From: Thermoplasmata archaeon
GTDB taxonomy: Archaea > Thermoplasmatota > Thermoplasmata > Lutacidiplasmatales > UBA184
DNA: 46,949 nt
Assembly (NCBI GenBank): GCA_021812305.1
Contig: JAKAOB010000002.1
Span: 1 to 46,949 of the forward strand
Reading direction: 5' to 3'
Positions 14,337-36,323 of the stretch are shown here, piece by piece. The position numbers were made by a program, and so were the translations under genes. A model generated the notes under the pieces. The model was not told the DNA's origin, did not search any database, and saw nothing but the letters and a program-made list of their open reading frames with translations. Within the stretch, counting starts at the first letter, position 1. Each line of letters opens with the position of its first letter.

Positions 14337-14409
14337 GGGCCGGTCGTCTAGCGGTGAGGACGCCGCGCTTACAACGCGGAGATCGGCGGTTCGAATCCGT
14401 CCCGGCCCA
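14337..14409 (+). tRNA. tRNA-Val (anticodon UAC)
   Basis: I folded the cloverleaf by hand. Acceptor GGGCCGG/CCGGCCC. D-stem GUCU/GGAC. Anticodon stem CCGCG/CGCGG with loop CUUACAA. 5-nt variable loop. T-arm GGCGG-UUCGAAU-CCGUC. Discriminator A. No encoded CCA and no intron. Confidence 0.92.
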
Positions 14410-14522
14410 CTCGATCCTTGCGCTATACTACGGAGGCCCGTAAGTAGGTCCACTTCGGCTCGCCTCTCGGCCCTCTAAATATCCCCTCAGATGGCGCGGG
14501 CCAGTGGATCGCGCGGAGGCCC

Positions 14523-28160: not shown

Positions 28161-29663
28161 GTGGCCGGCCGCGCAGCCCCGGGGTCCGTCCCGGAGCTCC
28201 GGGCCGCCCTCGCCGAGACCGGGGCGATCGGGTCGACGCTCCGCCAGCTCGCGGGACGGCTTTCCCAGCCCCTTCCCCGGGTCCGGCACGACCTGCACGC
28301 CCTGCGGGCCGCCGGGGACGTGCTGGAGATGGGCCGGGGGCTCTGGATCCTCCGGGACTTCGAGCGGCTGGAGCGCCGGGAGGACTTCGTGGACCCCGCG
28401 GAGTACGTCGAGCGATTCCTCCGCGACGGCGGCGTGGCGCTGGGCACGTACCGCGGTCCGATCACGTTCTCCTCGAACGAGCGGCTCGCCGTGCACCGGT
28501 GGTGGCCGTACGTCCAGGGCTATTCCGCCGAGTTCGTCCGCGGGCTCCTCGACCGGTCCGGCCTCGGCCGCGGCGGGACCGTCCTCGACCCGTTCGCGGG
28601 GAGCGGCACGACGCTCGTCGAGGCCCGCCGGGCCGGTCAGCGGGCGCTCGGGGTGGAGATCCTGCCGCCCGCGGCCCTCGCGGCCCGCGTCAAGACGCGG
28701 TTCGAGCTCGACGGATCGTCGCTCGCGGCGAGCGCGGAGGGCGTGCTGGCCCGGGCCCGGACGCGTCCCACGGGGGACCTGCCGTTCCTTCGGGAGACCC
28801 CGCGACAGTTCGCGCCGCGGGTGCTGGCCGACCTCACCCGTCTGCGCGACGCCCTGCCTCCGGAAGGTCGGCCGAGCGATGAGGCGCTGCGCCTGGCCTT
28901 CGGCAAGATCCTCATCCCGGTGAGCCGGCTCCGGCGCTCCCCCTGTCTCGGCTACGGGGGGCCCGACCGCCCGGAACGCGACGTCTTTCACGAGTTCGAC
29001 TCCGCGGTCGCGCGGATGCGGGAGGATCTCCGTGCGCTGCAGGCCGAGCGGCCGGACTGGGGGCCGCCGGCCCGAGTGTACACGGGCGACGCGCGCCGCC
29101 TCCGGCTCCCCCCGGCCTCCGTCGATCTGGCCGTCACGAGCCCTCCGTACGTGAACGGGATGGACTACGTGACCAACTACAAGCTGGACCTCGCCTGGCT
29201 CGGGTACGCCTCGAGCTATCCGGACCTGGTCGCGTTCCGTCGGGCCATGATCGCCTGCGACAACCTCCCCCGCGGGGACTCCGACGCCTTCCTTTCCCCG
29301 GCGCGCCTGCCGGATCCCTGGCTCGAGGAGATCCTCGGACGGATCCGCCGGAACGTCGAGCAAAAAGGGACCTACCGCCGCAACGATGTGCACGGGATCG
29401 TGCTGCGGTACTTCCTCGACCTCCTCGCCGTGCTCCGCCGGACGTTCCGGGCCCTGCGGCCCGGGGGCGGGTTCGTCCTCGTGGTCGGCGACTCCCTCCT
29501 GGCCGGGACGTATGTCCCGGGCGACCTTCTGACGGCGCGGCTCGGCGCCCGGGTCGGCTTCGAGATCGGGTCGGTCGAGGTGGCGCGCGAGCGGCGATCC
29601 GGTCAGCGCCGGAGCTTCCGGCTCCGCGAGTCGATCGTCACGCTCCGTCGCCCGCGCGGCTGA
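28161..29663 (+). CDS. DNA (N4-cytosine or N6-adenine) methyltransferase with an N-terminal wHTH
   Basis: Motif I VLDPFAGSGTTLVEA at about aa 141-155. Motif IV TSPPYVNGMDY at about aa 326-336. N-terminal LRQLAGRLSQPLPRVRHDLHALRAAGDVLE is wHTH-like. GTG start. Confidence 0.85.
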   Translation: MAGRAAPGSVPELRAALAETGAIGSTLRQLAGRLSQPLPRVRHDLHALRAAGDVLEMGRGLWILRDFERLERREDFVDPAEYVERFLRDGGVALGTYRGPITFSSNERLAVHRWWPYVQGYSAEFVRGLLDRSGLGRGGTVLDPFAGSGTTLVEARRAGQRALGVEILPPAALAARVKTRFELDGSSLAASAEGVLARARTRPTGDLPFLRETPRQFAPRVLADLTRLRDALPPEGRPSDEALRLAFGKILIPVSRLRRSPCLGYGGPDRPERDVFHEFDSAVARMREDLRALQAERPDWGPPARVYTGDARRLRLPPASVDLAVTSPPYVNGMDYVTNYKLDLAWLGYASSYPDLVAFRRAMIACDNLPRGDSDAFLSPARLPDPWLEEILGRIRRNVEQKGTYRRNDVHGIVLRYFLDLLAVLRRTFRALRPGGGFVLVVGDSLLAGTYVPGDLLTARLGARVGFEIGSVEVARERRSGQRRSFRLRESIVTLRRPRG

Positions 29664-29705
29664 CGGGGGGAAGGTTCTTTTCCGAGCGGCCGTTCGGCCC
29701 GGTGG

Positions 29706-29999
29706 ATGTTCTGTCCGGTCTGCGGCCGAGCGATGGCGGGGCCCGCGAACCCGGCCGTCGCCTACCCGGTCTTCGTCTGCGCGGCCGACGGGGTCATCTT
29801 CGACCAGCGGCGCGCCGAGTGGCACGGCATGCCGGAGGTCCGCGACCGCCTCTGCTGCCCGGCGTGCGGCGCTCCGATGGAGCGCGAGCCGAAGGATCCG
29901 CCCGCCCGCATGTTCCTCTGCTACCAGTGCGGGACGACCTACGACCGCACGCGCGCGGTGTGGTACGGCCTCGCCTACCACGCGGCCGGCCCCGCGTGA
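29706..29999 (+). CDS. small double zinc-ribbon protein (internally duplicated)
   Basis: 97 aa with third-position GC above 90 percent. Two repeats of CPxCGxxM-x(12-15)-FxCxxxG-xx(F/Y)D-xxRAxW(H/Y)G. Confidence 0.7.
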   Translation: MFCPVCGRAMAGPANPAVAYPVFVCAADGVIFDQRRAEWHGMPEVRDRLCCPACGAPMEREPKDPPARMFLCYQCGTTYDRTRAVWYGLAYHAAGPA

Positions 30000-30066
30000 G
30001 CCCGTCGTGCCACTGGACGAAAACCCTTACCTAATCCCGGGCCGGTGGATCGCCCGCGGGGACCCG

Positions 30067-30810
30067 ATGCCGAACGACGGCGAACCCGACTACGTCGAGC
30101 CGATCCTCGGGATCGTCTTCGACCTGGACGGGACGCTCGTCGTGAGCCGCCACGACTTCGACCGCATGCGCCGGGAGGTCATCGCGACGGCCGTCCGCCA
30201 CGGGGCCGATCCCGGCGCCCTGTCGCCGAAGGAGCCGGTCGCCCGCCTCTTCGAGGCGGTCCGCTCCGATCTGACCTCGCGCGGGAGGCCCGAGGGCGAC
30301 CTCTACCGGTTCGAGGCCGAGGCGAACCGGGCGATCGACGCGATCGAGATGGAGGCACTGCCGCGGACGACGGTGCGCGACGGCGCCGCGCCCCTCCTCG
30401 CCCACCTCTCCGAGCGCGGATACCGTCTCGGCCTTCTCACCCGCAGCGCCGAGCCGTTCGTGCGCGCCGCCCTCGCCCGGACCTCGCTCGCCGAGTACTT
30501 CCCGTACCTCCGGACCCGCAGCGCCCCGGGGCCGGCCAAACCGTCGCCCGAGGCGCTGTTCCTTCTCCTGAGCGAGATGGGGGTTCCCCCGGACCGCGCC
30601 CTGTTCGTCGGGGACCACCTGATCGATGCCGAGTGCGCGACGCGGGCCCGCGTCCACTTCTACGCGCTGCTGCCGGTGCCGGGCGACGACAACGGGATGA
30701 CGCGCGAGCGGTTCCTCGCCGCCGGGGCCGCCGCCGTCGCCGAGGACCTCCCGGACCTCGGCCGCATGCTCGGTCTCCCGGCGCGGGGCCCGTCCGCGCG
30801 GCCGGCCTGA
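30067..30810 (+). CDS. HAD-superfamily phosphatase
   Basis: IVFDLDGTLV (motif I), LGLLTRS (motif II) and FVGDHLIDAE (motif IV). I prefer ATG 30067; the track ORF begins at GTG 30007. Confidence 0.8.
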   Translation: MPNDGEPDYVEPILGIVFDLDGTLVVSRHDFDRMRREVIATAVRHGADPGALSPKEPVARLFEAVRSDLTSRGRPEGDLYRFEAEANRAIDAIEMEALPRTTVRDGAAPLLAHLSERGYRLGLLTRSAEPFVRAALARTSLAEYFPYLRTRSAPGPAKPSPEALFLLLSEMGVPPDRALFVGDHLIDAECATRARVHFYALLPVPGDDNGMTRERFLAAGAAAVAEDLPDLGRMLGLPARGPSARPA

Positions 30811-30850: not shown

Positions 30851-31357
30851 GTGCAGGTGGTCCTCGTCCGCCACGGGCCGGCCGCCCCCCGGGACCCTCA
30901 GCGGTGGCCCGACGACGAGCTCCGCCCCCTCACCCGTGAGGGCCGGTCGCTCGCGCGCGCCGCCGCACGGGGCCTCCAGCGCGCCGGGGTCCAACGCCCC
31001 TGGATCGCGTCGAGCCCGCTCGCCCGGGCGCGGGCCACGGCCGAGATCGTGGCGGGGGTCCTCGACGCCGACGGGTCCATCGAGACCTGGCCGGAGCTCC
31101 GGCCCGAGGGGACCGGTGCGGCCGTCCTCCGGCGCCTCGCCTCCCGGCGCGCGCGCGAGGGCCCCCGGCTCCTCGTCGGGCACGAGCCGAACCTCGGTCT
31201 TTTGGCCGGGCTCCTCCTCTCCGGCGAGGAGGTCCGACCCTTCCGCCTCGCGAAGTCGGGCGCGGCGCGCCTCTCCCTCCCGCGTCGGATCGCCCCCGCG
31301 GCGGCGAGCCTCGACTGGCTCCTCACCCGGAAGCAGCTCGTGCGCCTCGGCGAGTAG
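30851..31357 (+). CDS. sixA: phosphohistidine phosphatase SixA-like (histidine phosphatase superfamily)
   Basis: VVLVRHGPA (RHG motif), SSPLARARATAEIV, LVGHEPNLG. GTG start 23-32 nt downstream of a TATA-like box. Confidence 0.8.
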   Translation: MQVVLVRHGPAAPRDPQRWPDDELRPLTREGRSLARAAARGLQRAGVQRPWIASSPLARARATAEIVAGVLDADGSIETWPELRPEGTGAAVLRRLASRRAREGPRLLVGHEPNLGLLAGLLLSGEEVRPFRLAKSGAARLSLPRRIAPAAASLDWLLTRKQLVRLGE

Positions 31358-32084
31358 ACGGCGCCCGCAGGGAGGCCTCCTCCGCCTCCTCGTCGCCGGC
31401 GGCGCGCCCGTAGAGCGGTTGGACGAGCGCGCGGACGTCCCGATGGACGAGCGCGGGCGGCCGGTTCCCGTCGACGGAGCGGAACCCGTACTCCCGGCCC
31501 ATCCAGTCGAACTCCTTGCGCAGGAGGTTCTGGTAGAGGAAGAAGCTCTCGAAGCGGTCCCGCGAGAGCGACAGGTCCATGCCGCTCTCCCAGTAGTCGA
31601 GTGAGCCGTACTTCCCGATCGCCCGGTGGAGGAGGATCTCCGGCTTCGCATCGAGGTAGATCGTGAGGTCCGGGACGACCGCGAACCCGTAGAGCCGCCG
31701 GGCCCAGTCGCGGGAGGCGCCCCGCACGACCGCCCGCGCCATGAGGGTGTAGATATAGCGGTCGGCCAGGACCGTCGAGCCGGCCGCCAGGGACGGGAGG
31801 ATCTTGTTCTCGAGCTGATCGGCGAAGTCCGCGGCGTACATGAGCGCCATCGTGGTGGCGGCGAGGGTGTGTCCCTGCTTCGCCTGCGCGATCTGCTCGC
31901 CGACGAGCGTCGAGCGGCGAAGGCCGGTGTCGACGACGGGGTGGCCGCGGATCTCGAGCCACTCCCGCAGCAGCTCGGCCTCCGTGGTCCGACCCGAGCC
32001 GTCGGCGCCCTCCAGGACGATCAGGCGGCCGCGGTAGTGCTCCTTCGACAGCCCCGGGAGGGGCGTGCCGTAGGTCCTACGCAT
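31323..32084 (-). CDS. thymidylate-kinase-like P-loop protein B (Walker A Lys replaced by Arg)
   Basis: LIVLEGADGSGRTTEAELL, ADRYIYT (DRY box), LDYWESGMDLSLSRD. Its ATG overlaps the stop of the upstream paralogue by 8 nt (CATGCGTAG). Confidence 0.8.
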   Translation of the reverse strand: MRRTYGTPLPGLSKEHYRGRLIVLEGADGSGRTTEAELLREWLEIRGHPVVDTGLRRSTLVGEQIAQAKQGHTLAATTMALMYAADFADQLENKILPSLAAGSTVLADRYIYTLMARAVVRGASRDWARRLYGFAVVPDLTIYLDAKPEILLHRAIGKYGSLDYWESGMDLSLSRDRFESFFLYQNLLRKEFDWMGREYGFRSVDGNRPPALVHRDVRALVQPLYGRAAGDEEAEEASLRAPSTRRGARAASG

Positions 32085-32799
32085 GGACGAGCGCCTCCGT
32101 CCGCGGGAGGCCCGCGAGGAGGGGGCGGATCTCCCGGCGGACGACGTGGAGGACCTCCTCGATCGGCCGGTCGGCCGGGATCACGACGAGCGGGTCGGTG
32201 TCGGCGAGCCGGTCGTAGGCGCGCTTGAGCCGCCCCTGGAACCGCTCGTAGCTCTCGATGAGGTCGTCGGCGAGGCCGAGGTCCATGCCGGCCTCGTAGT
32301 AGGAGATCTTCTGGCGCGAGGCGAGCTTGCGCTTGAGGGACGTCTCGACCGTCACGCGGAAGTAGAACGTCTTGTCCGGGAGCGGGGCGAACCCGTAGAG
32401 GTTCCGCACCCAGCCCGGATCGCAGCCCCGGACGGTGTCCCGAGCGAAGGCCGTGTAGACGTAGCGGTCGCACACCACGATGTACCCCGCGCGCAGGGGC
32501 GGGAGGATGTGCCGCTCGAACCGATCGGCGAAGTCCGTGGCGTGGAGGAGCGAGAAGGTGGTGGGCGTGAGCAGTCCCTTCTTCTTTCCCTTCCGGATGG
32601 TCTCCGAGACGAGCTCGGAGGAGTTCCATTCGGTGAAGAAGACCCGGTAGCCTCTCGACTGGAGCCACTTGACGAGGAGCCGCGCCTGGGTCGACTTCCC
32701 GCTCCCGTCGAGCCCCTCGAAGACGACGAGGCGGCCGAGCCCGGTGGGCTTCGGGATCGGCGACGCGACGGCGGCCCGGCGATCGGGCGCGGACGGCTC
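32077..32799 (-). CDS. thymidylate-kinase-like P-loop protein A (5' boundary unresolved)
   Basis: My translation upstream of track ORF 32077..32478 reads ...PIPKPTGLGRLVVFEGLDGSGKSTQARLLVKWLQSRGYRVFFTEWNSSELVSETIRKGKKKGLLTPTTFSLLHATDFADRFERHILPPLRAGYIVVCDRYVYT... The Walker A sits about 220 nt upstream of the first canonical start (GTG 32478). The frame is open right up to the ppx stop. Confidence 0.75.
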   Translation of the reverse strand, partial: EPSAPDRRAAVASPIPKPTGLGRLVVFEGLDGSGKSTQARLLVKWLQSRGYRVFFTEWNSSELVSETIRKGKKKGLLTPTTFSLLHATDFADRFERHILPPLRAGYIVVCDRYVYTAFARDTVRGCDPGWVRNLYGFAPLPDKTFYFRVTVETSLKRKLASRQKISYYEAGMDLGLADDLIESYERFQGRLKRAYDRLADTDPLVVIPADRPIEEVLHVVRREIRPLLAGLPRTEALVHA

Positions 32800-34390
32800 A
32801 GCGCTCGTGGTACACCACCCGGTACTGGAAGGTGCGGCGGAGGACCCGGGCGATCCGTTCGATGACCCGGGGGGGGAGCCCCTCGGCGGCGCGGTGGGTC
32901 GCGCGCAGGTGGACCGTGCGCTCCCGCAGCGTGAACCCGACCGGGGTCCCGTCGAGCAGCTCGGCGACGAACAGGATCGCCCCCAGCTCCACCGCGGTCC
33001 GCACCCCGGCGCGGCGGAGGACCGGTCGCCAGATCTTGCGGAGGTCGCCCGGCAGCTCGGCGCCCTCGTGCTGGAGGAGCGCGAGCGTCGCGAGCGCGAT
33101 CTGGCGGTGGTCGACGCCGAGGAACGGGAAGTTGCTCAACAGGTAGGCGGAGTGCTCCTCGTGGGCCCAGCCGGCCACGGACATGCCCGCGTCGTGCATC
33201 CCGGCCGCCACTTCGAGGGCCAGCGCCTCCGAGTCGGTCCAGCCGAACCGCGGACGGAGACGGGAGAAGAGCGCCAGGGCGCTCTGGGCGACCGCGTCTC
33301 CGTGCTCGAGCGAGAACCCGAAGGAGCGATGGGCGACCGTGAGCGACCGGCGCGCGAGCGCCCGGGCCGAGGCGGGCACGGCGATCCCCGCCGCTTCGAC
33401 CGCCGCCCCTTCGCGGATGCCCGTCCCGCTCACGACCAGACGGTCGCGGTCCGTGGCCCGCAGGACCTCCTCCACCACGATGATCCCCGCGACGATGACG
33501 TCCGCACGGTGGCCCGTCATGCCGGGCAGCTGCCGCCGCGCCGAGGCGGGCACCGAGGCCATCAGCTCCTCGAGGTCGCGCAGGGTGGCCCGCGTCAGCT
33601 CGAAGCCGTGGGTCTGGTGCAGCGGGTACCGGTTCGCCTCGATCGCCACCCGCGCCAGGCACCGGATCGTGCCTCCGACCCCATAGATCCGCTCCGGACG
33701 GCGTCCCGACTCCCTCCGGGGGAGGTCGGCGAGCGCCCGCCGGACGTGGCCGCGGAGCGCGCGCATCTCGCGGCGCTTGGGCGGGTCGTGCCGGAGGAAC
33801 CTCTGGCTCAGGCGCAGTGCCCCGAGCGGGAGGCTGGTGGACCGCCCGGGGAGTCCGCGGTGGGTCAGCACTGCCTGCAGGGAGCCCCCGCCGAGGTCGA
33901 CGATGAGGTCGTTCGCGAGCTCCCAGGCCGTGGCGACGCCGAGGTAGGCCAGACGCCCTTCCTCCTCGCCGCTGATCACTCGCAGGCGAAGGCCCGTGTC
34001 CCGCTCCACCTGGTTGACGAACGTGGGGCCGTTCGGCGCGTCGCGGATCGCGCTGGTGGCGACCGCTTCGAGCGGAGGGTTGCCCAGCCGATCGAGCTGC
34101 AGGGCGAACCGGCGGAGCGTCGCGCGCCCACGCTCGATCGCGTCCGGGGTGAGCGCGCCGTCCGGGCCGATCCCCTTGCCAAGGCGCGGTACCTCCTTCG
34201 ACTCGAACATCGACCGAAGACCCCCTTCGGCCGTCCGCTCGAAGACGACGAGTCGAGCCGTGTTCGAACCGACGTCGATCACGGCGATACGGCCGACCGG
34301 GGCCCCCGGTTGGACCATCGCGCGGAGGACACCCTCCGCCGGGGCCATCGCGACCCGGGCGGGGGCCCGCACGGGGCCGGGAAGGCTCAT
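32798..34390 (-). CDS. ppx: exopolyphosphatase / GppA-family phosphatase with a C-terminal HD-like domain
   Basis: IAVIDVGSNTARLVVFE, ATSAIRDAPNG, ISGEEEGRLAYLG, DLGGGS. I prefer ATG 34390 (MSLPGP...). The 150 codons further upstream in the track ORF have poor third-position GC. Confidence 0.85.
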   Translation of the reverse strand: MSLPGPVRAPARVAMAPAEGVLRAMVQPGAPVGRIAVIDVGSNTARLVVFERTAEGGLRSMFESKEVPRLGKGIGPDGALTPDAIERGRATLRRFALQLDRLGNPPLEAVATSAIRDAPNGPTFVNQVERDTGLRLRVISGEEEGRLAYLGVATAWELANDLIVDLGGGSLQAVLTHRGLPGRSTSLPLGALRLSQRFLRHDPPKRREMRALRGHVRRALADLPRRESGRRPERIYGVGGTIRCLARVAIEANRYPLHQTHGFELTRATLRDLEELMASVPASARRQLPGMTGHRADVIVAGIIVVEEVLRATDRDRLVVSGTGIREGAAVEAAGIAVPASARALARRSLTVAHRSFGFSLEHGDAVAQSALALFSRLRPRFGWTDSEALALEVAAGMHDAGMSVAGWAHEEHSAYLLSNFPFLGVDHRQIALATLALLQHEGAELPGDLRKIWRPVLRRAGVRTAVELGAILFVAELLDGTPVGFTLRERTVHLRATHRAAEGLPPRVIERIARVLRRTFQYRVVYHER

Positions 34391-34605
34391 GGGGCCCGTC
34401 CCGCCCCGCCCACCCCATCCCTCGGCGGGCAGGACCGGCGCGGCGCGCTCGACCGGCCGTTGACGGAGGGCCGACGCTGGGGCCGCCGACGTTCCGCGAC
34501 CGCGCCTGCCATCTGCGAGAGCTCCGAGTGGGCTCGGGTAAGGTTCAGAGTGCCGCCGCCTAAATTGGGTTTCGCCTTTACGGAATCGGTCCCCCGACGT
34601 TCCCT

Positions 34606-34860
34606 CTATCGCCCCGGGCGCAGGGTCCGACGAACGATCCACCGCCAGCGCCCCCGGCGGACACCGGGCCCGCTCTCCGCCCGGTCCCCGACGCGCCGGT
34701 CGACCTCGCGCGCCGCCCACACCGGGTCTTCGTTCGGGAACTCGAGCCGTGCCCACTCCCCCACGGCGCCGGGCCGGGCCCCCCGTCCGCCCGTTGCCGA
34801 CCGTCTCCTCGTCCCGCCCGACTCCCGCCGTGCCTCGAGGTCCATCCATTCGATCTCCAT
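34606..34860 (-). CDS. possible small basic protein (84 aa)
   Basis: ATG 34860 directly abuts the AT-rich promoter region, with ATATAG 23-30 nt upstream. Third-position GC is about 88 percent in this frame. It is Arg/Trp-rich with no recognisable motif. Confidence 0.4.
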   Translation of the reverse strand: MEIEWMDLEARRESGGTRRRSATGGRGARPGAVGEWARLEFPNEDPVWAAREVDRRVGDRAESGPGVRRGRWRWIVRRTLRPGR

Positions 34861-35049
34861 CGTTTCTACATATTTATTTCAGAACTATATATCTGCTTCT
34901 AACCAGCGGAACCGACCCGCGTGCGCCGATAAGAAATGAAGGGCAGTGGGACCGCGAGAGAGGATGCCCCGTCGGACCCCGCACCGGCGGAAGGCCGGCG
35001 TACGGTCCTTATGTGAGAGTATTGAGTAGACTATATTCTAAATTGGGAA

Positions 35050-35061
35050 GATATATATTTC
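35050..35061 (+). promoter_or_regulatory. TATA box for the PhoU-type regulator
   Basis: GATATATATTTC, 21-32 nt upstream of ATG 35082. Confidence 0.55.
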
Positions 35062-35081
35062 AACCTGACCTTGGACACGCC

Positions 35082-36323
35082 ATGATGGGAAAGGAAGGAA
35101 CCCGGGACGGCGCCGTGAGCCGGTTCCCACCGAAGGGCCGGACCGAGATCGAGGAAGAGCCGTTCAGGCGGCTTCAGCGGATGGGCGCGGTGACGATCGG
35201 CGTCTCGCTTCCCAAACCCTGGGTAGCCCGGCACCGGCTCGGGGTCGGAAGTCCGATCAAGCTGCGGGCCCTGGCCGACGACTCGATCCTCCTGCGGGCG
35301 GAACCGCCGCATCCGGGAGGGCTCGGGGCGGTGGTGGCCGTCGACCGTACCGCGTCCCCCGAGCATCTCTTCCGAGACCTCGTGGGGTCGTACATCTCCG
35401 GGGCTCACGAGTTCGAGATCCTCGAGCCGGGCGGACTGCGGCCGGAGACCCGGCAGATCGTCCGGACGTTCGCGCGCCGCACGTTGCAGATCGAGATCGT
35501 CTCCGAGGACGCGGAGCGGCTGGTCCTGCGGGACGTCTCGCGCGGGGGCGACCTCGCCCTGGGACCCGTGCTTCACCGGATGTTCCAGGTGGTCTTGGAC
35601 CTCCAGCGCCAGGCGGGCGCCGCGTGGGGCGAGTCGGAACCGACGGAGGCCGTCTCGCTCGGCCTGCGGGACGACGAGGTCGATCGCTACGCTTGGCTCG
35701 TCGAGCGCGTCCTCGCCCTTCGCCTGGCCCCCGAGACGCTCGGCGAATACCCCCAGACCGCCGAGGGCCATCCCCTTCACGCCCTGCTCCTCACGCGATA
35801 TCTCGAACGGATCGCGGACCACGCGGTCAAGATCGCGGATGTGCACGCTCGCCTCGGCGGGGCCCGCCTGCCCCCTCGGCTCACGTCGGCGCTCCGGGAC
35901 CTCCATGGGCAGATCCTCCGTGCCCTCGAGGCGGCGGTCGAGGTCGCCGAGCATCCGGATTCCGCCCGGGCGAACGAGGTCATCGACACGACCGAGGCCC
36001 TGCACCAGACCCAGGAGACGCTGAGGGAGGGTCTGCTCGCCCGTGCCCGACCGGCGGACCTCACCCCCGCCGCGGCCGCCGGCCTCGGCCTGGTGCTGGA
36101 GTCCCTCGACCGGACCGTCGCGTACGCCCAGGACATCGCGGAGATCGGCCTCGACCGGGCGGCGCGCGCCGCCCTCGCGCCGGTGCCTTCCCGCGAGGGC
36201 CCCTCCGCGGCCTCCGCTTCGCCCGCGCGGTCGGCGGGCCGCACCGAGGACGCTCCGGCCCCCCGGCGGCGTCGCATCACCCCGAACGCCGCGCCGGCGG
36301 CGCGGTCGTCCGACTACAGGTAG
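35082..36323 (+). CDS. phoU: PhoU-family phosphate regulator with an N-terminal SpoVT/AbrB domain
   Basis: AVTIGVSLPKPWVARHRLGVGSPIKL (AbrB-like swapped hairpin). PhoU repeats DDEVDRYAWLVERVL and LTRYLERIADHAVKIAD. ATG 35082 lies 21-32 nt after GATATATATTTC. Confidence 0.82.
   Translation: MMGKEGTRDGAVSRFPPKGRTEIEEEPFRRLQRMGAVTIGVSLPKPWVARHRLGVGSPIKLRALADDSILLRAEPPHPGGLGAVVAVDRTASPEHLFRDLVGSYISGAHEFEILEPGGLRPETRQIVRTFARRTLQIEIVSEDAERLVLRDVSRGGDLALGPVLHRMFQVVLDLQRQAGAAWGESEPTEAVSLGLRDDEVDRYAWLVERVLALRLAPETLGEYPQTAEGHPLHALLLTRYLERIADHAVKIADVHARLGGARLPPRLTSALRDLHGQILRALEAAVEVAEHPDSARANEVIDTTEALHQTQETLREGLLARARPADLTPAAAAGLGLVLESLDRTVAYAQDIAEIGLDRAARAALAPVPSREGPSAASASPARSAGRTEDAPAPRRRRITPNAAPAARSSDYR

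Follow-up and report, generated by a model that had tools for sequence, protein, structure and literature searches.

The window analysed here, a stretch of 46,949 nt (~47 kb) with a GC content of ~72%, belongs to a Thermoplasmata archaeon (assembly GCA_021812305.1, contig JAKAOB010000002.1) and carries on its minus strand a ppx gene followed by two genes of the thymidylate kinase (Tmk) superfamily. We call these two genes A and B, and propose that they encode the catalytic (cPPK3) and the regulatory (rPPK3) subunit of PPK3, a heteromeric polyphosphate (polyP) kinase. The features of the locus are collected in Table 1. The ppx product scores 281.6 bits with the exopolyphosphatase model TIGR03706 (exo_poly_only), which is under the cutoff of 307, yet well over the score of the GppA model; the same call of 530 residues is found in the NCBI annotation used for comparison (contig DAHVLO010000071.1, GCA_027320345.1), and the start is uncertain by ~25 codons.

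Table 1. Genes and control region at the ppx-cPPK3-rPPK3 locus, with the domain matches that identify them.
Feature	Position	Strand	Basis
ppx (Ppx/GppA family exopolyphosphatase), 530 residues, first gene of the unit	32798-34390	-	PF02541, E 9.8e-59; PF21447 (domain III), E 1.2e-11
cPPK3 / Tmk-like A, predicted catalytic subunit	32077 to ~32757 (5' end uncertain)	-	PF02223, E 2.4e-28
rPPK3 / Tmk-like B, 253 residues, predicted regulatory or scaffold subunit	31323-32084	-	PF02223, E 1e-22
SixA-like histidine phosphatase	30851-31357	+	PF00300, E 4.9e-12; TIGR00249, 65.7 bits, below cutoff of 74.5
HAD hydrolase	30007-30810	+	Pfam match
ppx-phoU divergent control region, 691 bp, two AT-rich TATA-like patches	34391-35081		conserved islands in alignment with sister locus L002
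PhoU-domain regulator, weak AbrB/MazE-like N-terminus	35082-36323	+	PF01895, E 1.7e-15; PF04014, E 0.0034 (sub-threshold); TIGR02135, 63.7 bits, below cutoff

A preliminary description of the locus had reported three co-directional minus-strand genes without intergenic space, the start of B inside the end of A, and SixA and HAD phosphatase genes adjoining on the 3' side. The gene order and orientation are as described; the ATG of B (32084-32082) lies within cATGcgTAG, giving an 8-nt overlap of the A and B frames, and sixA runs convergently to the rPPK3 gene, with 3' ends that overlap by 35 nt. The absence of intergenic space between ppx and A holds for the reading frame of A, which runs without a stop from 33135 to the TAG at 32079-32077, but no ATG, GTG or TTG stands in this frame before the P-loop. 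The A frame overlaps the 3' end of ppx by 335 nt, and a ppx-A fusion by frameshift was considered and rejected: no such PPX-cPPK3 fusion occurred among the homologues checked, and we do not take the overlap as a fusion because long open alternative frames are to be expected at 72% GC. Among the likely genes and open reading frames (ORFs) scanned in the window we found no third Tmk paralogue and no PPK1, PPK2, CHAD or Pst gene, the other contigs of this metagenome-assembled genome (MAG) lying outside the scan.

The preliminary description mentioned, with reserve, a report that two Tmk-annotated genes next to ppx in Sulfolobales form a heteromeric polyP kinase, and this enzyme does exist, namely SaPPK3 of S. 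acidocaldarius (Hofmann et al., J Biol Chem 2026; PMC12995831; preprint 10.1101/2024.08.28.610084). Its operon has the order sixA-ppx-saci_2019-saci_2020-CHAD, and both kinase genes are annotated as dTMP kinases. Saci_2019 (cPPK3) is the catalytic subunit and Saci_2020 (rPPK3), inactive alone, stimulates cPPK3; neither has dTMP kinase activity, the real dTMP kinase being Saci_0893. The enzyme is an alpha2-beta2 complex, and its reversible reaction strongly favours the formation of ATP from polyP and ADP. PolyP is bound by basic residues of the catalytic subunit, the charges of this cleft are conserved in c and not in r subunits, and the arginine of the DRX motif is replaced in rPPK3s. ST1543 (PDB 5h70) of S. 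tokodaii is a cPPK3 homologue, and SixA is listed as a PPK3 neighbour (Hofmann et al., 2026). In a survey of 47,545 GenBank genomes, PPK3 was found mainly in Sulfolobaceae and Nitrososphaeraceae and in a few bacteria (Hofmann et al., 2026); Thermoplasmata are not mentioned in the text of the paper or its preprint, and an older survey of archaeal polyP genes lists for Thermoplasmatales no more than traces of PPK1 and PPX.

The motifs that had been noted in A, a Walker A sequence (FEGLDGSGKSTQ) and a DRY box (CDRYVYT), are both present, with the P-loop lysine as Lys21 (32697-32695) and DRY at 32469-32461; A thus reads GSGKST and CDRYVYT, and also carries RKGKKK. The block that A was said to share with B is likewise found in both (ISYYEAGMDLGLADD in A, SLDYWESGMDLSLSRD in B), and the two proteins are paralogous (phmmer, ~1e-48). 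The best match of A in the PDB is ST1543 (2plr/5h70; phmmer E 7e-60), compared with 2e-15 for the best true Tmk. An AlphaFold2 model of the A monomer (pLDDT, the predicted local distance difference test, of 79; predicted template-modelling score 0.78) retrieved ST1543 chains at ranks 1-8 in Foldseek, with template-modelling (TM) scores of 0.86/0.93, a root-mean-square deviation of 1.7 Å and 47% identity to 5h70_B, against E values of ~1e-11 and TM scores of ~0.62-0.72 for canonical Tmks. An alignment of the A family matches the profile of the Sulfolobales c subunits with E 5.7e-68 (44% identity) and that of the r subunits with 5.2e-28. At least 120 close clusters at 90% identity were available for each paralogue, and in the best 120 of them the P-loop lysine of A is present without exception (120/120). 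Judged by sequence and model, A is a clear cPPK3 orthologue.

B reads EGADGSGRTT and ADRYIYT; its P-loop lysine is replaced by Arg32 (31991-31989), as the preliminary description had seen, and DRY is kept. The replacement is real, but it is not peculiar to this locus, being common to every r-type sequence that we examined. ST1543 is also the best PDB match of B (phmmer E 5e-39, versus ~1e-15 for true Tmks), and ST1543 chains again occupy ranks 1-8 in a Foldseek search with the B model. To our knowledge, no structure of an rPPK3 exists. The C-terminal tail of B (residues 232-253) has pLDDT values below 50 and is probably disordered, as far as the model can tell. The placement of the two paralogues relative to bona fide Tmks, which had been proposed as a check, suggests that, within the Tmk superfamily, both subunits belong to the PPK3 branch, apart from canonical dTMP kinases.

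Comparison of c-type with r-type sequences, the latter comprising B, seven Sulfolobales r and two bacterial r proteins, yields a set of paired motifs: GxGK(S/T) versus GxGR(S/T) in the P-loop, TEWNSS versus TG(L/W)xxS after strand 2, ADRxER versus ADQxEN in the helix before DRY, and TAFARD versus TLMA after DRY. The same contrast, and not Fig. S16 of Hofmann et al. (2026), defined seven c-specific positions that are predominantly Lys or Arg in c-type and not in r-type sequences. Six of the seven are Lys or Arg in A (R55, K59, R79, R82, R134 and R148, the seventh being S152), while the corresponding residues of B are A, Q, Q, N, D, Y and D; the retention of these residues in A and their loss in B match the published statement on the polyP cleft (Hofmann et al., 2026). 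The P-loop arginine is found in 120/120 of the best B homologues, and DRY in 119/120. A motif scan of the 150 best representatives showed that sequences with an arginine P-loop have a (Y/F)WE(S/A)G lid, with the exception of P0183, whereas c-type sequences have (Y/F)(Y/F)EAG. In a neighbour-joining (NJ) tree from Kimura distances, which has two partial Tmk sequences as outgroup and deep nodes supported by <35%, all sequences with an arginine P-loop except the stray P0157 fall into one clade that includes B, the Sulfolobales r and the bacterial r proteins. Across this sample, the universal lesion of the r type is the change of the P-loop lysine to arginine. By these characters, A appears equipped as a catalytic subunit of PPK3, with an intact P-loop lysine, DRY arginine and basic cleft residues, and B would be a degenerate paralogue with derived characters of the Saci_2020 type.

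Conservation of ppx-tmkA-tmkB among relatives was another proposed check. We compared the window with the loci of two sister MAGs (L002 and L003), with L013 (GCA_037025365.1, a 1.2-Mb contig) and with L016 (GCA_022750015.1), using flanks of up to 10 kb. The order ppx-c-r with a convergent sixA recurs in all four of these Thermoplasmata loci, and the junction of c and r is an overlap of 8-11 nt in the window and in each of the relatives. In L016, an AbrB-PhoU gene and a divergently oriented CHAD gene are also present. The association that characterizes PPK3 loci, with c and r adjacent, co-directional with ppx, and SixA and/or CHAD nearby, is present at the locus. The 3' ends of sixA and the rPPK3 gene overlap in all five Thermoplasmata loci, by up to 119 nt (L013).

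Sulfolobales reference loci were retrieved with the ST1543 sequence. The locus of Acidianus hospitalis (L004) runs sixA, ppx, c (GSGKSS, SDRYIYT), r (GSGRTA, ADGYVLT) and CHAD. Like SaPPK3, the window has two adjacent Tmk-fold paralogues in overlapping frames directly downstream of ppx, with SixA adjoining; the first carries GxGK(S/T) and DRY, the second GSGR(S/T), ADQxEN and TLMA, the dTMP-contact positions are replaced, and the nearest structure solved is that of the cPPK3 homologue from S. tokodaii. The window differs from SaPPK3 in its host (Thermoplasmatota, ~72% GC), in an r subunit that keeps the DRY arginine (DGY in Sulfolobales r), in the orientation and position of SixA (convergent at the 3' end, versus co-directional at the 5' end), in the absence of a CHAD gene from the window, in its divergent PhoU-type regulator and in a catalytic gene that lacks a canonical start. 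The lid of the window type, YYEAGMD or YWESGMD, is also absent from Sulfolobales, which have IKPQEAGAD or LDPLSxGID. Two bacterial PPK3-like loci, L011 from a Deltaproteobacteria MAG and L012 from a Pseudomonadota MAG, have the order ppx-c-r-sixA and an r subunit that reads GVGRTT and keeps DRY. They resemble the window in their lid blocks (YYEAGMD and DYWESGxD) and differ from it in that sixA is co-directional. Their proteins match A with 254-265 bits and B with 205-209 bits (phmmer), above the Sulfolobales proteins; by score, no named relatives stand nearer to the window pair. In these loci, as in Sulfolobales, sixA points the same way as the operon.

Closer relatives are numerous. Identity in the best 120 clusters is no lower than 71% for A and 68% for B; every organism-named cluster in the two lists is a Thermoplasmata archaeon, and 26 identical longest-contig sizes are common to both lists. 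With A as the query, 357 representatives of clusters at 50% identity were retrieved at E<=1e-30, and the c-type and r-type classes are apparent in the best 150. Named representatives include a c-type cluster of Nitrospira (294 members), an r-type cluster of Verrucomicrobiota and a c-r fusion of Alicyclobacillaceae (460 residues). Other relatives of the c domain are fused to r plus an HD/PPX domain III (620-696 residues), to NUDIX, to an inorganic pyrophosphatase (1610 residues), to DUF2252/APH with a weak SPX match (794 residues), or in the order MFS-Tmk-DUF2252 (1237 residues); the fusion proteins from this search are P0122, P0132, P0134, P0170, P0165, P0184, P0239, P0209, P0227 and P0121. 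Fusion of the c domain to phosphate-related modules fits a role in phosphate metabolism.

The 5' end of A deserves separate treatment. None of the three canonical start codons occurs in the A frame between the upstream stop (33135) and a GTG at 32478, which lies downstream of the P-loop, and just one codon there differs from ATG by a single base, the near-cognate ATC at 32757-32755, which follows the ppx stop by 40 nt. Because no such start precedes the P-loop, the NCBI call for A is truncated to a C-terminal fragment of 133 residues that begins at GTG 32478 and lacks the P-loop; a spurious ORF of 47 residues on the opposite strand is called in the gap (32479-32797). The identical 133-residue product occurs on three contigs. 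In the sister MAGs L002 and L003, whose A proteins are 98% identical to that of the window, a TTG start is located exactly at the window's CTC 32739-32737, and in more distant relatives A begins ~12 residues earlier, at an ATG that overlaps the ppx stop. Upstream of GTG 32478, the window and L002 differ by 23 synonymous changes and 1 non-synonymous change. The ratio of non-synonymous to synonymous differences per site (pN/pS, from simple Nei-Gojobori-type counts) is 0.015 at a pS of 0.35, which indicates that the P-loop part of A was translated for almost the whole span of the divergence; the overall values are 0.034 for A and 0.16 for B. The P-loop part is under strong purifying selection, and the gene looks functional. 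Either initiation is non-canonical, at the ATC or by reinitiation 40 nt past the ppx stop, or the start was lost very recently, or the contigs share a consensus error.

Given the homology, fold, motif pattern and conserved synteny that we observe, together with the purifying selection, the locus is very probably a PPK3 operon of Thermoplasmata, in which ppx, cPPK3 and rPPK3 follow one another and sixA is convergent. Homology, motifs and synteny thereby support what the preliminary description had proposed, a two-subunit polyP kinase with one catalytic and one degenerate subunit. The name "polyP kinase" is appropriate for the family, but since the published enzyme strongly favours the direction from polyP to ATP, it is best understood to mean a polyP:ADP phosphotransferase that works reversibly. 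The family has been described before, and the locus shows no new mechanism; enzymatic activity, complex formation, stoichiometry and regulation would be transferred to the window pair by homology. By analogy with SaPPK3, the 8-nt overlap of A and B would couple their translation and yield a product ratio of ~1:1, and the two proteins would assemble as an alpha2-beta2 complex. A would act as the catalytic subunit, having the Tmk fold, the P-loop lysine, the DRY arginine and the basic residues, and B, with its P-loop arginine and without the c-specific basic residues, as the non-catalytic partner. Such a complex would reversibly move the terminal phosphate between ATP and polyP: polyP would be made only at high ATP/ADP, polyP and ADP would yield ATP again as the energy charge drops, and PPX would trim the same polymer to inorganic phosphate. 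The divergent PhoU-type regulator may couple expression to phosphate status.

Several observations weigh against this assignment. The r clade of the NJ tree has a bootstrap value of 24%, and the grouping of B with the Sulfolobales r proteins one of 32%. The B-family profile is equidistant from Sulfolobales r (253, E 3.8e-39) and c (254, E 7.3e-39), and phmmer likewise places B equally near to both; a reciprocal-best-hit argument for the orthology of B was dropped, the phmmer and hhalign scores for Sulfolobales c and r being equal. With weak bootstrap values and equal profile scores, the orthology of B to Saci_2020 rests on shared motifs and gene order. Moreover, B retains in ADRYIYT the DRY arginine that is said to be replaced in rPPK3s (Hofmann et al., 2026); the arginine is kept in every r-type sequence from outside Sulfolobales that we saw, and only the Sulfolobales r proteins read DGY. 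The window lacks the CHAD gene, and its SixA gene is convergent instead of co-directional. A has no canonical start in this MAG and is called as the 133-residue fragment on three contigs, and with the start missing and the calls truncated the expression of the catalytic subunit is not assured. Lastly, both proteins exceed the cutoff of TIGR00041, a dTMP kinase model (A 107.4 and B 87.5 bits; cutoff 83.25).

This score belongs to a different account of the pair, which is also that of the NCBI/JGI annotation, namely that A and B are ordinary duplicated dTMP kinases and the adjacency to ppx is incidental. Both proteins match PF02223, all homologues with a name carry the label "dTMP kinase" or "thymidylate kinase", and ST1543 itself was deposited as a dTMP kinase. 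However, TIGR00041 also gives 106.4 bits to the Acidianus cPPK3, which is 80% identical to ST1543 and is the counterpart of the dTMPK-inactive Saci_2019; the model therefore cannot discriminate PPK3 from dTMP kinase, and its acceptance of PPK3 subunits accounts for the uniform labels. An NCBIfam scan of A, B and the Acidianus protein (L004, 4989-5636) returned dTMP-kinase models and one unrelated hypothetical-protein model, none of them specific for PPK3. The dTMP contacts of Tmks, which we take to be the arginine of TREPGG, the stacking phenylalanine and the Tyr-Gln dyad of AYQ, appear to be lacking in A and B alike: in HMMER alignments with the T. maritima and T. thermophilus Tmks, TREPGG aligns to TEWNSS (A) and TGLRRS (B), the phenylalanine to His (A) and Tyr (B), and the dyad to ARD (A) and ARA (B). 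Replacement of the dTMP-contact residues is a described trait of PPK3, and neither Saci_2019 nor Saci_2020 acts on dTMP (Hofmann et al., 2026). Canonical Tmks such as those of T. thermophilus (5x7j) and T. maritima (3hjn) share with A and B the P-loop kinase fold, DRY, the LID arginine and scores above the Pfam and NCBIfam thresholds; they differ in overall similarity (~1e-15; model TM ~0.6-0.7) and in the three contact motifs. In addition, B lacks the P-loop lysine, the window genes stand in an operon with ppx, and the linkage to ppx is conserved across Thermoplasmata, Sulfolobales and bacteria. We consider duplicated dTMP kinases highly improbable, in agreement with the preliminary description, since the contact residues are replaced and ST1543 is far closer than any Tmk. 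A Pfam search at E<=0.01 detected no PPK2-family domain (presumably PF03976) in A or B, only Thymidylate_kin and weak generic AAA matches. Two-domain class II PPK2 enzymes such as P. aeruginosa PA3455, discussed by Hofmann et al. (2026), resemble the proposed pair in that an active P-loop kinase module cooperates with a degenerate one on polyP, but have the modules in one fused chain and not in two separate polypeptides; moreover, the nucleotide and polyP sites of PPK3 are swapped relative to PPK2 (Hofmann et al., 2026).

Two further alternatives accept the PPK3 ancestry of the pair and differ in what has become of its subunits. The module could be decaying in this population, the start of A having been lost and the gene left untranslated or expressed only as the 133-residue fragment, with no working PPK3. 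The missing start codons, the CTC in place of the sister MAGs' TTG and the truncated calls on three contigs would be explained in this way. Set against them are the intact frame of A, the near absence of non-synonymous changes in its P-loop part and the in-frame ATC at which reinitiation is conceivable; furthermore, the three contigs may stem from related data, which makes a shared consensus error possible, and a start loss, if real, could be very recent. On these grounds decay seems unlikely. The second alternative concerns B, which in a PPK3-type complex may be a subunit that binds a ligand (sensing ATP/ADP or polyP) or is weakly active, and not a dead scaffold. B retains the P-loop geometry, the DRY arginine and the invariant LID arginine (Arg143), and the combination with a conserved P-loop arginine would leave room for the binding of a phosphate ligand by r. 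The near-universal DRY among B homologues, a P-loop position that is always arginine and never non-basic, the retention of DRY in all r-type representatives outside Sulfolobales, and the trace formation of ADP by Saci_2020 (Hofmann et al., 2026) favour such a role, while the lack of measurable PPK or dTMPK activity of Saci_2020 in the same study and the loss of the c-specific basic residues from B speak against it. We rate a sensing or weakly active B as possible, though rather doubtful, and retain for B the part of a non-catalytic partner in a Thermoplasmata PPK3.

As to regulation, the AT-rich region that the preliminary description had placed upstream of ppx resolves into two patches, 34860-34905 and 35010-35075, with a GC content of 0.42-0.47 against ~0.72 for the window. 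A 10-nt motif, CTAAATTGGG, occurs twice on the plus strand of the ppx-phoU spacer: the copy at 35038-35047 lies in the AT-rich block that immediately precedes phoU, and the copy at 34560-34569 ~170 nt upstream of the ppx ATG. In the alignment with L002, the AT-rich blocks and both motif copies stand out as conserved islands, and CTAAATTGGG may be a promoter element, or an operator on which the AbrB-PhoU protein acts. That protein had been described as a divergent PhoU-type regulator with an AbrB domain; its PhoU domain is solid, but its AbrB/MazE N-terminus is seen only as a sub-threshold match, and an AbrB part is on record for the PhoU homologue of L016. The PhoU neighbour is also found in L002, L003 and L016, and not in L013. 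We regard it as a candidate phosphate-responsive regulator, whose link to the operon is suggested by position. If the ppx promoter lies at the TATA-like patch GATATATAGTT...AAATAAATAT, the leader would be ~470 nt long; Rfam and tRNA scans, whose only hit was a tRNA-Val at 14337, found no known RNA element in it. Right after this patch begins a small ORF (34606-34860, minus strand; 84 residues, MEIEWMDLEA...). In the stretch coding for GEWARLEFPNEDP, L002 differs from the window only at third codon positions, which hints at a genuine short gene; the more distant relatives L013 and L016 lack the ORF.

The locus adds Thermoplasmata, a lineage unmentioned in the published description, to the hosts of PPK3. 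The sequences suggest that PPK3 is also common in uncultured Thermoplasmata, and the family would then not be confined to TACK archaea, the group with Sulfolobales and Nitrososphaerales. They further provide a rule to tell c from r subunits, by Lys or Arg in the P-loop together with TEWNSS or TGxxRS and ADRxER or ADQxEN, and add two traits, a regulatory subunit that retains DRY and a catalytic gene without a canonical start that is truncated by annotation pipelines. The r form with a P-loop arginine and a kept DRY is found in the bacterial loci as well. More tentatively, and with less confidence than we place in the operon assignment, PPK3 may serve as the usual polyP kinase in a large clade of uncultured, high-GC Thermoplasmata, with an r subunit that senses ligands (ATP/ADP or polyP), with the P-loop change and not the loss of DRX as the family-defining character, and with A translated from a non-canonical start; we hold this extended proposal to be possible, but not probable. 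The naming as dTMP kinase and the truncation of the catalytic gene matter for metabolic reconstructions of phosphorus cycling.

Two further regions of the window are of minor interest. On the plus strand, 28161-29999 contains a gene for an N6/N4 DNA methyltransferase (PF01555, as on the NCBI contig) and, after it, an ORF of 97 residues with three CxxC pairs, which has the look of a zinc ribbon and no family match on record. After the tRNA-Val gene (14337-14410) comes a stretch with a lower GC content (0.645-0.69 versus ~0.72). The ORFs tested between 14337 and 17000 had no Pfam match except a partial RibD_C, and this stretch may be an integrated element or foreign DNA.

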